Of a stretch of 46,457 nucleotides of DNA, positions 1 to 712 are shown piece after piece. The position numbers and the translations under genes are program-made. The DNA is from a virus (Duplodnaviria; Heunggongvirae; Uroviricota; Caudoviricetes): the IMG/VR virus record IMGVR_UViG_2563366799_000009; one strand, written 5' to 3'. Numbering within the stretch: position 1 is the stretch's first letter; each line of letters begins with the position of its first letter. The notes under the pieces were generated by a model that did no database searches, was not told the DNA's origin, and saw only the letters and a program-made list of their open reading frames with translations.

Positions 1-390
1 TTAGATGACAGGGCAGCTATCAAACTCTCCCGATCGTGCATCATTGATGATGTAAGTGATCACCCCAAATACTGGCGAAGTCACATTGTAGTCACCCGTT
101 GAGTCTGGTATCTCTTCGCGCTTACCGTTCTCCAGGTTCACCAGGTGAGGTCTTGGGTGCAAGCGGAAGCGCTTTATCTTTAGCTCACCATCTAACCTAC
201 AGATGAGCAGAGAGCCATCGCAAGGTATCAGGGAGCTATCTACCACTAACAAGGCACCATTCATGATGCCTTCTCTCCAGTATGTCTGCCCTGCTCTCAT
301 GAAGTATGTAGCTGATGGATGCTCAATAAATTTCTCATCTAGCGATATGTGGCGCTCAACGTAGTCCGCTGCCGGAGAAGGGAAGCCCAT
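1..390 (-). CDS. umuD: UmuD'-like protein (LexA/S24 fold, natively lacking the N-terminal arm; HumD-like)
   Basis: 129 aa beginning MGFPSPAADYV, which corresponds to the residues just after the Cys-Gly autocleavage site of UmuD; HPSATYF and GEL-K-IKR motifs conserved; the GDSM nucleophile motif is replaced by GQTYW; in-frame stop 4 codons upstream of ATG; AGAGG RBS. Confidence 0.75.
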   Translation of the reverse strand: MGFPSPAADYVERHISLDEKFIEHPSATYFMRAGQTYWREGIMNGALLVVDSSLIPCDGSLLICRLDGELKIKRFRLHPRPHLVNLENGKREEIPDSTGDYNVTSPVFGVITYIINDARSGEFDSCPVI

Positions 391-436
391 AGTTACCTCT
401 ATCTACTATTGACACTGGATAAAAACACAGTATATA

Positions 437-456
437 TACTGTATATCCAACCAGTA
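437..456. promoter_or_regulatory. LexA (SOS) box TACTGTATATCCAACCAGTA between divergent umuD'-like and dinI-like genes; overlaps the -10 of a TTGACA(409-414)/TATATA promoter
   Basis: CTGT-N8-CCAG, one mismatch from the CTGT-N8-ACAG consensus and the same CCAG half-site form as I recall for the E. coli dinI box; a 16-bp ACAGTATATATACTGT palindrome sits immediately upstream. Confidence 0.7.
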
Positions 457-472
457 AAGGGAGAAGGTAAAA

Positions 473-712
473 ATGTTTGTTGAGCTGGTTTATGACAAGA
501 GAAACGTTGCCGGCTTGCCAGGTGCAAGTAGCATCATTCTGGCAGAACTGACAAAGCGGGTGCACCGGATTTTTCCCGATGCTGAGGTGAGGGTGAAGCC
601 AATGCAGGCTAACGCCTTAAACAGCGACTGCACCAAAATTGAGAAAGAACGGCTGAACCGCATGCTGGAAGAAATGTTTGAAGAATCTGATATGTGGCTG
701 GTTTCAGAATAA
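473..712 (+). CDS. dinI: DinI-family DNA-damage-inducible protein
   Basis: 79 aa; aligns by eye with E. coli DinI (…RIFPD…, C-terminal DMWLVSE vs DDWFVSE); GGGAGAAGG RBS; LexA box 17 nt upstream. Confidence 0.8.
   Translation: MFVELVYDKRNVAGLPGASSIILAELTKRVHRIFPDAEVRVKPMQANALNSDCTKIEKERLNRMLEEMFEESDMWLVSE

Follow-up and report, generated by a model that had tools for sequence, protein, structure and literature searches.

A divergent humD–dinI gene pair under predicted LexA control at the attachment-site end of a temperate prophage

The two divergent genes at the left end of the window (the whole 46,457-nt stretch of DNA analysed here) are best read as a LexA-controlled cargo ("moron") locus at the att end of a complete temperate prophage, encoding a pre-formed UmuD' analogue of the HumD family on one strand and a DinI-family protein on the other. 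The probability of this reading is put at about 80%. As a finding the locus is real but ordinary, and already known in kind: characterisation of the HumD family began with phage P1 in 1999, a curated NCBI model exists for it, and the protein encoded in the window already carries its name. What can be added concerns the family. LexA control, as predicted from operator sequences, appears near-universal among HumD loci; in about a third of these loci humD lies opposite a dinI gene, the two separated by a conserved spacer with two operators; and members throughout the family keep a hydroxyl residue and the Lys of the former active site, together with a nearly invariant tail specific to HumD. These features could help anyone studying the use of host pol V by temperate phages, and with it their contribution to damage-induced mutagenesis in the Enterobacteriaceae, for example in Citrobacter. 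Coordinates of the features discussed are collected in Table 1.

Table 1. Features of the humD–dinI region in window coordinates; promoters and LexA boxes are predictions.
Feature	Position	Strand	Description
humD-family CDS	1..390	(-)	129 aa; S24-fold, natively UmuD'-length
humD Shine-Dalgarno GAGG	396..399	(-)	5 nt before ATG; direct sequence reading
Putative dinI sigma-70 promoter	409..436	(+)	TTGACA 409-414, 16 nt, TATATA 431-436; sequence reading
LexA box B (predicted)	413..432		CACTGGATAAAAACACAGTA; 22 nt from humD ATG; score 21.3
Putative humD sigma-70 promoter	429..458	(-)	TTTACT 458-453, 18 nt, TATACT 434-429; 9/12 matches in scan; conserved across loci
LexA box A (predicted)	437..456		TACTGTATATCCAACCAGTA; 16 nt from dinI ATG; score 22.9
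dinI-family CDS	473..712	(+)	79 aa; prophage paralogue; acidic C-terminal helix EEMFEESDMWLVSE
ynaM-like small ORF	939..1058	(+)	39 aa; Pfam PF23676 (YnaM), 34 bits vs cutoff 27

Prophage Context

The whole window is bracketed by a 49-bp direct repeat equivalent to the 3' part of tRNA-Pro, one copy lying 97 bp beyond the humD stop and the other 136 bp past the end of a lambda-type integrase gene (45270–46457), whose stop codon ends the window. Also present are a CI-type HTH-S24 repressor (38611–39237), a CII-like gene, a Q-like antiterminator, a DNA methyltransferase, a Mu-like baseplate, tail-fibre genes, and gtrABC. To the left of the window, in contigs with an identical HumD, are tRNA-Pro(GGG), yejM, yejL, yejK, and rplY. 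The humD and dinI genes are attachment-site-proximal cargo of a complete-looking prophage of ~46.7 kb in tRNA-Pro(GGG), the host of which is probably Citrobacter or a near relative. The initial annotation had placed the pair on a mobile-element remnant; this part of it falls, because att repeats bracket the window and the integrase, repressor, Q, tail, and gtrABC genes are all in place. A 128-aa ORF at 1120–1506 (-) was considered separately as a possible integrase remnant of an older element and rejected: it has no Pfam match, its PHROG has no assigned function, and the att repeats are located beyond it.

Identity of the Encoded Proteins

The 129-aa protein is an already-named member of the HumD family, and the gene at this locus is already catalogued. 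Its match to NCBIfam NF051876 ("HumD family translesion DNA polymerase"), a 129-position equivalog model built around P1 HumD, runs from end to end (residues 1–129 of 129; 214 bits against a cutoff of 120). It also matches Pfam PF00717 (Peptidase_S24) over its first 77 residues (33.6 bits against 23.3), and falls in a PHROG labelled "UmuD-like protein". In the PDB, the crystal and NMR structures of UmuD', 1UMU (E = 1.7e-22) and 1I4V, are both matched at ~1e-22, with the alignments beginning at UmuD' residue 1. Full-length relatives in phage genomes, identified by tblastn, include P1 humD (65%), N15 gp26 (65%), phiKO2 gp23 (64%), and HK140_028 (69%), with further ones in SJ46, D6, RCS47, and others. 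The kinship with P1 HumD proposed from the sequence alone is borne out by these matches, as it is by direct alignment with UmuD and HumD, in which the protein starts at UmuD Gly25 and is 40% identical to UmuD and 65% to P1 HumD. Identical sequences in NCBI/UniRef are named "HumD family translesion DNA polymerase" and "S24 family peptidase", and come from Enterobacteriaceae, mainly Citrobacter amalonaticus and C. farmeri. At the DNA level, a near-identity search turned up nothing in the phage or E. coli collections that spans the whole 900 bp, only records of its halves.

The divergent gene was expected to encode a DinI-like protein, and does: its product matches Pfam PF06183 (DinI) with 75.4 bits against a cutoff of 24.2 and falls in PHROG 189, "RecA filament binding protein DinI". 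The alignment with DinI itself (PDB 1GHH, E = 1.6e-7) extends through the acidic C-terminal helix. The match to the equivalog model for chromosomal DinI (NCBIfam NF007893) is below cutoff (39.6 bits vs 111), and the closest relatives in DNA sequence are prophage genes, such as phi80 dinL with 82% nucleotide identity; dN/dS is about 0.07–0.10. Judged by its sequence, this gene is a prophage DinI paralogue under purifying selection. The ynaM-like small ORF downstream of it, in the same direction, accompanies the humD/dinI pair in several of the loci surveyed (L003–L010). An Rfam scan of positions 1–2000 at E ≤ 1 gave no match, and so no known sRNA (for example, one like DinR) in the dinI 3' region.

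The Divergent Spacer and Its LexA Boxes

The two genes diverge across an 82-bp spacer in which the pattern CTG-N10-CAG occurs twice, at 415–430 and 439–454, within the predicted LexA boxes B and A, respectively. Box B sits between the dinI -35 and -10 hexamers and over the humD promoter start region, while box A comes just after the dinI -10 and extends over the humD -35, so that either box should affect both promoters. A CTG-N10-CAG operator overlapping a promoter, the mark of an SOS regulon member, is present here. The initial annotation described a dinI promoter overlapped by a LexA box. Hexamers and box are there as described, but the boxes number two, one per gene, rather than one. The consensus promoter scan did not call the dinI promoter; its rule requires a T at the last position of the -10, which TATATA does not have. 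In related loci the same position is occupied by TTGAAT-17-TATAAA. A second TATATA, at 433–438, would serve as an alternative dinI -10 with an 18-nt spacer.

The box scores come from a 20-position matrix built on an uncurated set of 19 LexA boxes of E. coli (training scores 12.7–26.8), and both fall within the range of this training set. Four sites in the whole window score 20 or more, against none in any of 100 shuffled versions of it, and the same matrix finds the curated LexA site of P1 exactly. A search of the window with a 20-mer LexA consensus, allowing up to three mismatches, found no match, both boxes having four to five mismatches outside the CTG/CAG cores. Such a number is usual for real LexA boxes. 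Conservation points the same way. A strong box is found in 42 of 46 related loci, ending either 14–22 nt or 255–263 nt before the humD ATG; loci of the more distant class have a 79-aa gene ahead of humD, with the box immediately 5' to that gene. Wherever dinI diverges directly from humD there is a pair of boxes, set 24 bp apart, and in an alignment of eight spacers of this type from Citrobacter, Kluyvera, and Klebsiella the CTG, the CAG, and the promoter hexamers are invariant.

Counterparts with independent annotation or expression data are found in known phages. The P1 record lists a "LexA binding site in the regulatory region of lxr and humD" at the same position as box B. Prophage dinI homologues with boxes of this kind are damage-induced in Salmonella (PMC3121763; PMC8072944), and the boxes of the Gifsy dinI genes lie ~19 nt from the ATG (PMC8072944), a placement like that of box A. 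Overall, the humD/dinI spacer has the character of a LexA-controlled region, to which LexA would be expected to bind and from which both genes would be SOS-induced.

A Possible Role for the Pair

If the cargo locus works as its sequence suggests, LexA dimers on the adjacent operators at 413–432 and 437–456 would silence both back-to-back promoters in an undamaged lysogen, independently of the CI-type repressor of the phage. DNA damage would activate RecA, LexA would cleave itself, and humD and dinI would be transcribed. HumD would be made already in its UmuD' form, with no requirement for the slow RecA-assisted cleavage, and may then, as P1 HumD would suggest, dimerise and join host UmuC in a translesion polymerase resembling pol V; the DinI-family protein would bind RecA filaments and modulate them via its acidic C-terminal helix. 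P1 HumD is described as UmuD in a state that is active from the outset and able to complement UmuD' (P1 record note; PMC7092418); within the family, P1 HumD alone is known to stand in for UmuD' in SOS mutagenesis and to bind UmuC and RecA filaments. RecA filaments are stabilised by E. coli DinI, which when abundant also inhibits the cleavage of UmuD (PMC6590174); HumD, being pre-cleaved, would not be subject to this block, and this provides a rationale for expressing the two together. The HumD-UmuC and DinI-RecA interactions, like any cooperation between HumD and DinI, are proposed here by analogy. The biochemistry is carried over from P1 HumD (65% identity) and from E. coli DinI, a distant paralogue.

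The distribution of the pair bears on whether the two genes belong together. A divergent dinI is found in ~10 of 35 HumD loci, directly in seven and with the 79-aa gene in between in three; in 12 of the 35 humD is instead preceded by an unrelated 79-aa gene, and neither gene is present in P1 or N15. Pairing with DinI is recurrent, not obligatory, and a literature search found no report of it. It is possible, at something short of an even chance, that humD and dinI are independent SOS cargo genes that merely abut, each added by moron accretion at the att-proximal end, with no cooperation. Each has its own LexA box at a canonical distance (22 and 16 nt), and the limited frequency of the pairing would fit, HumD elsewhere being alone (P1, N15, and many others) or behind the 79-aa gene, as would the dinI homologues carried without humD by phi80, mEp390, and the Gifsy phages. 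Chance abutment accounts less readily for a near-identical 80-bp dual-operator spacer that recurs in Citrobacter, Kluyvera, and Klebsiella, or for the divergent arrangement in HK140, where one gene has been inserted; the reported DinI block of UmuD cleavage (PMC6590174), with the reason that it gives for co-expression, also argues against it.

The UmuC Partner

As initially annotated, the window contains no umuC-like gene; a tblastn search of all of it with E. coli UmuC gave a best E-value of 1.9. There is none in the left flank of contigs with an identical HumD, where a polymerase gene had been suggested as something to look for and where the tRNA-Pro, yejM, yejL, and yejK genes are found in its stead, and none was seen up to 6 kb from humD in ~35 loci with full-length family members. 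Such umuC matches as the survey of loci gave all adjoin distant true umuD genes. Since no umuC is linked, host UmuC is presumed to be the partner. In C. amalonaticus, C. farmeri, and C. freundii, contigs of chromosome size carry UmuC orthologues 87–88% identical to that of E. coli, and a host UmuC partner is plausible at the species level.

The consistent separation from umuC could also be taken to mean that HumD is mainly a regulator or decoy, titrating host UmuD, UmuC, or RecA filaments to the benefit of the phage (for instance by limiting recombination, or in a checkpoint); a cognate umuC is missing from every one of the ~35 loci. In the 1999 work of McLenigan and colleagues, P1 HumD was reportedly poorly expressed and needed a high copy number for full complementation, which would suit such a role. 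So would the antagonism of RecA recombination by UmuD'2C (PMC6590174), and the conserved tail that is missing from UmuD' suggests an extra interaction of some kind. A decoy role is nevertheless unlikely, given the conservation of both core and N-terminal arm MGFPSPAADYVE between the window protein and UmuD', and the statement in the P1 record that HumD functionally complements UmuD'.

Former Active Site and C-Terminal Tail

In an alignment with E. coli UmuD and LexA, the UmuD stretch A-S-G-D-S-M reads A-(gap)-G-Q-T-Y(W) in the window protein. The position of UmuD Ser60 (LexA Ser119) is held by Thr36 and that of UmuD Lys97 (LexA Lys156) by K73, a Lys that is invariant across the UmuD/LexA/HumD alignment. 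The protein was initially said to lack the catalytic serine, and literally it does; the residue has not been deleted, however, but conservatively replaced by Thr, with the Lys kept. Set beside the defining features of Peptidase S24, it has the PF00717 domain and the Lys and not the Ser nucleophile. Among 120 HumD representatives, the nucleophile column contains Thr in 77, Ser in 40, Ala in two, and Met in one, and the general-base Lys is retained in 119. P1 HumD has Ser (ADSHH), and N15 and HK140 have Thr. At the other end of the protein, a C-terminal tail, [ST]GEFDDCPVM, is nearly invariant in the HumD family and absent from UmuD; the window protein ends SGEFDSCPVI, with Ser125 in place of the Asp, and Ile129 in place of the Met, of most members.

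Self-cleavage is not needed, as was first proposed, since no N-terminal arm is present to be removed. That it is not possible either, the other half of that proposal, can only be inferred, and a simple inability to self-cleave does not explain why Ser or Thr and the Lys have been kept family-wide. More generally, neither the near-invariant Ser/Thr-Lys dyad nor the HumD-only tail is explained by a plain UmuD'-substitute model, and these are the sole unexplained features of the locus that are worth a specialist's glance. An AlphaFold2 model of HumD made from a 30-sequence family alignment (mean pLDDT 52.5) was too poor for the geometry of the tail or of the Thr-Lys pair.

A more elaborate reading, decidedly improbable, makes HumD more than a pre-cut UmuD': the tail might dock HumD and UmuC on SSB-partner sites, or the dyad might act in trans on host UmuD, and with DinI expressed alongside from the dual-operator spacer the whole would be a phage module that hijacks the host translesion machinery. 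The acidic C-terminal tip of SSB is D-F-D-D-D-I-P-F. To the eye, the HumD tail resembles this tip.

That the retained residues form an active site working in trans, for example on host UmuD in a HumD-UmuD heterodimer or on another S24 substrate, is by itself very improbable. The idea draws on the conservation of Lys in 119 and of Ser or Thr in 117 of 120 representatives that have no cleavable arm of their own, and on the fact that UmuD cleavage can take place between subunits. Thr, the majority residue and the one in the window protein, is a poor nucleophile in Ser-Lys proteases, however; the GDSM context has been lost, with the Asp59 position variable and Met61 replaced by His or Tyr; and the dyad residues may be retained for folding alone. 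The cargo reading, with HumD as a ready-made UmuD' analogue, is preferred to both.

Native Short Form of humD

The short form of humD, on which the cargo reading depends, is native. In the ORF translation the protein opens MGFPSPAADY, and its start aligns with UmuD Gly25 (M-GFPSPAADY against UmuD 25–33), which is the first residue of UmuD' and the downstream side of the Cys24/Gly25 cleavage point. No internal Ala/Cys-Gly cleavage site with an N-terminal segment ahead of it is found; the protein begins at the Gly. A single in-frame stop had been noted 5' of the start, and there are in fact two, at 403–408, five to six codons ahead of the ATG with four sense codons between (the frame reads Q-stop-stop-I-E-V-T-M-G). 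With stops and a Shine-Dalgarno sequence preceding the ATG, no hidden upstream coding part came to light, and the original description of a natively truncated UmuD'-type protein stands, its start falling at the UmuD' N-terminus and its match to the HumD model running end to end.

The same start Met is found in 113 of 120 HumD-family representatives. The identical 129-aa protein is indexed in 242 blocks of an assembly collection, and all eight contigs with an identical HumD that were inspected in detail have the same locus. Compared with an 80%-identical E. coli prophage homologue, humD has a dN/dS of 0.076, and values across the quoted pairs are about 0.08–0.15, these being closer pairs only, with synonymous sites saturated in most pairs. 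It is the upstream stops, the ribosome binding site, the common start, the identical copies, the LexA box upstream in most relatives, and the dN/dS together that establish the short form as native. The window does start exactly at the humD stop codon and the nucleophile Ser is altered, but that the gene is a umuD fragment truncated at its 5' end and in decay, or that an error of sequencing or assembly masks an upstream coding part, is barely credible and is ruled out by this same evidence (stops, ribosome binding site, conserved start, number of copies, and dN/dS), to which may be added a promoter and LexA box belonging to humD itself and a curated family model of exactly 129 positions.

Comparison with Known Systems

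E. coli UmuD and UmuD' (PDB 1UMU, 1I4V, 8GMT) share with the window HumD the S24 fold, 40% identity, an equivalent of Lys97, and the arm GFPSPAADYVE; UmuD is LexA-repressed, and the same is predicted for humD. UmuD is, however, a 139-aa precursor cleaved between Cys24 and Gly25 on RecA filaments and co-transcribed with umuC, whereas the window HumD is made short, with Thr in place of Ser60, an extra 10-residue C-terminal tail, and no umuC partner gene.

On the other side of the spacer, the dinI gene can be compared with chromosomal DinI and with prophage homologues (phi80 DinL, the dinI genes of Gifsy-1/2/3, and the C-terminal half of 186 Tum), all of which have the same DinI domain and acidic C-terminal helix. 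The prophage dinI homologues and the dinI of the window have a LexA box ~16–19 nt before the ATG. In the Gifsy phages, dinI is the first gene of an operon that also encodes an antirepressor, by which induction is triggered; in the window prophage no antirepressor was identified downstream of dinI, and the repressor is a CI-type S24 protein.

P1 HumD (P1_gp103) is like the window protein in length (129 aa), in starting MGFPSPAADYVE at the UmuD' N-terminus, in full-length identity (65%), in having no linked umuC, and in its C-terminal tail (...NDARSGEFDDCPV(I/M)). In both phages a LexA box ~20 nt upstream of humD is common to a divergent gene. P1 HumD keeps the nucleophile Ser, where the window protein has Thr (GQTYW), and the divergent neighbour in P1 is lxr (190 aa) rather than dinI, with one box rather than two. 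Lxr was considered as a possible hidden DinI homologue, and a domain search found no DinI domain in it. The phages themselves also differ, P1 being a plasmid prophage and the window an integrated phage with a Mu-like baseplate, a lambda-type integrase, and a CI repressor.

In HK140, as in the window, divergent genes for DinI and HumD (within genes 026–028) have the tail-fibre genes on one side and attP-int on the other. The order is tail fibre, DinI (leftward), a 79-aa gene and HumD (rightward), attP, and int. The extra 79-aa gene, of unknown family, lies between the operator region and humD, whereas humD in the window faces dinI directly (82 bp), and a single high-scoring box was found in the 400 bp scanned, against two in the window. 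A LexA box lies upstream of the rightward operon as it does in the window, and the proteins are 69% (HumD) and 82% (DinI) identical to those described here.

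Prophage limits and attachment site

The entire window is one prophage, bracketed by a 49-bp direct repeat, CATGGGGTGTCGGGGGTCGGAGGTTCAAATCCTCTCGTGCCGACCAAAA, found in the flanks supplied by related contigs. The repeat corresponds to the 3' portion of tRNA-Pro(GGG). The window itself runs from the humD stop codon at its start to the integrase stop codon at its end (1-46457). Three GGGGTGAAA repeats, possibly integrase arm-type binding sites, stand close together beyond the window, in the sequence that separates the humD stop from the att core. At the other end, also beyond the window, the stretch from the integrase stop to the att core of attR holds a LexA-box-like sequence, CACTGTTTGCATATACAGTC; in the circular phage this sequence would be near the 3' end of humD.

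Two further strong LexA-box-like 20-mers, TACTGTATAATAATACAGTT and CACTGTTTATAATTACAGTA, are within the window, the first inside gtrC and the second at the beginning of the phage DNA methyltransferase gene that follows a Q-like gene. With the matrix used (20 positions, from 19 E. coli boxes), a score of 20 was reached in none of 100 shuffles of the whole window; these two score 25.0 and 22.1.

Locations of features in the window and in related loci
Feature	Location	Strand
Flanks with 49-bp repeat	L008/L010 10391-10600; L064 5189-5400	
GGGGTGAAA repeats	L010 10400-10440	
CACTGTTTGCATATACAGTC	L064 about 5280-5300	
HumD C-terminal tail	window 4-33	
First 25-nt repeat	window 812-836	
ynaM-like ORF	window 939-1058	
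Second 25-nt repeat	window 1086-1110	
128-aa ORF	window 1120-1506	-
gtrA-gtrB-gtrC	window 1908-4709	
TACTGTATAATAATACAGTT	window 3958-3977	
CACTGTTTATAATTACAGTA	window 29970-29989	
79-aa gene	L001 8388-8627; L013 2262-2501; 12 other loci	
BTP1 humD homologue	L014 2501-2873; record 18586-18958	

Gene neighborhood of the SOS pair

The 3' region of dinI, roughly 125 nt, is 82% identical to phi80 up to position 822. A 25-nt repeat, TCTT(G/C)CATACGGTG(T/C)GGTTGCGGCA, occurs twice, the first time within this 3' region; the two copies flank a small ynaM-like ORF, and both form part of GC-rich hairpins. No Rfam match was obtained in this region or the repeats (scan of window 1-2000, E<=1). Beyond them, a 128-aa ORF assigned to PHROG 19751 (unknown function), with no Pfam match, is conserved beside the SOS pair in several sister prophages. 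The gtrA-gtrB-gtrC operon next to the pair is of the O-antigen glucosylation/serotype conversion type; sister prophages with identical humD have other cargo in the same position (acyltransferase or dehydratase genes, extra tail-fibre cassettes).

Roughly one in three HumD loci, that of phage HK140 among them, have a conserved 79-aa gene directly before humD; this gene shares the humD operon behind the LexA box and belongs to no Pfam family.

HumD homologues and the C-terminal tail

In Salmonella phage BTP1 the match to humD is split in two pieces, and this homologue looks frameshifted. The BTP1 record has no humD annotation, and the opposite strand there carries an annotated hypothetical gene.

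Among 120 HumD-family representatives the C-terminal tail, [ST]GEFDDCPVM (columns 120-129), is nearly invariant; the window protein differs at two positions, with Ser125 and Ile129. The tail is HumD-specific, being found in neither UmuD nor LexA. The C-terminal tip of SSB is DFDDDIPF, which the HumD tail resembles.
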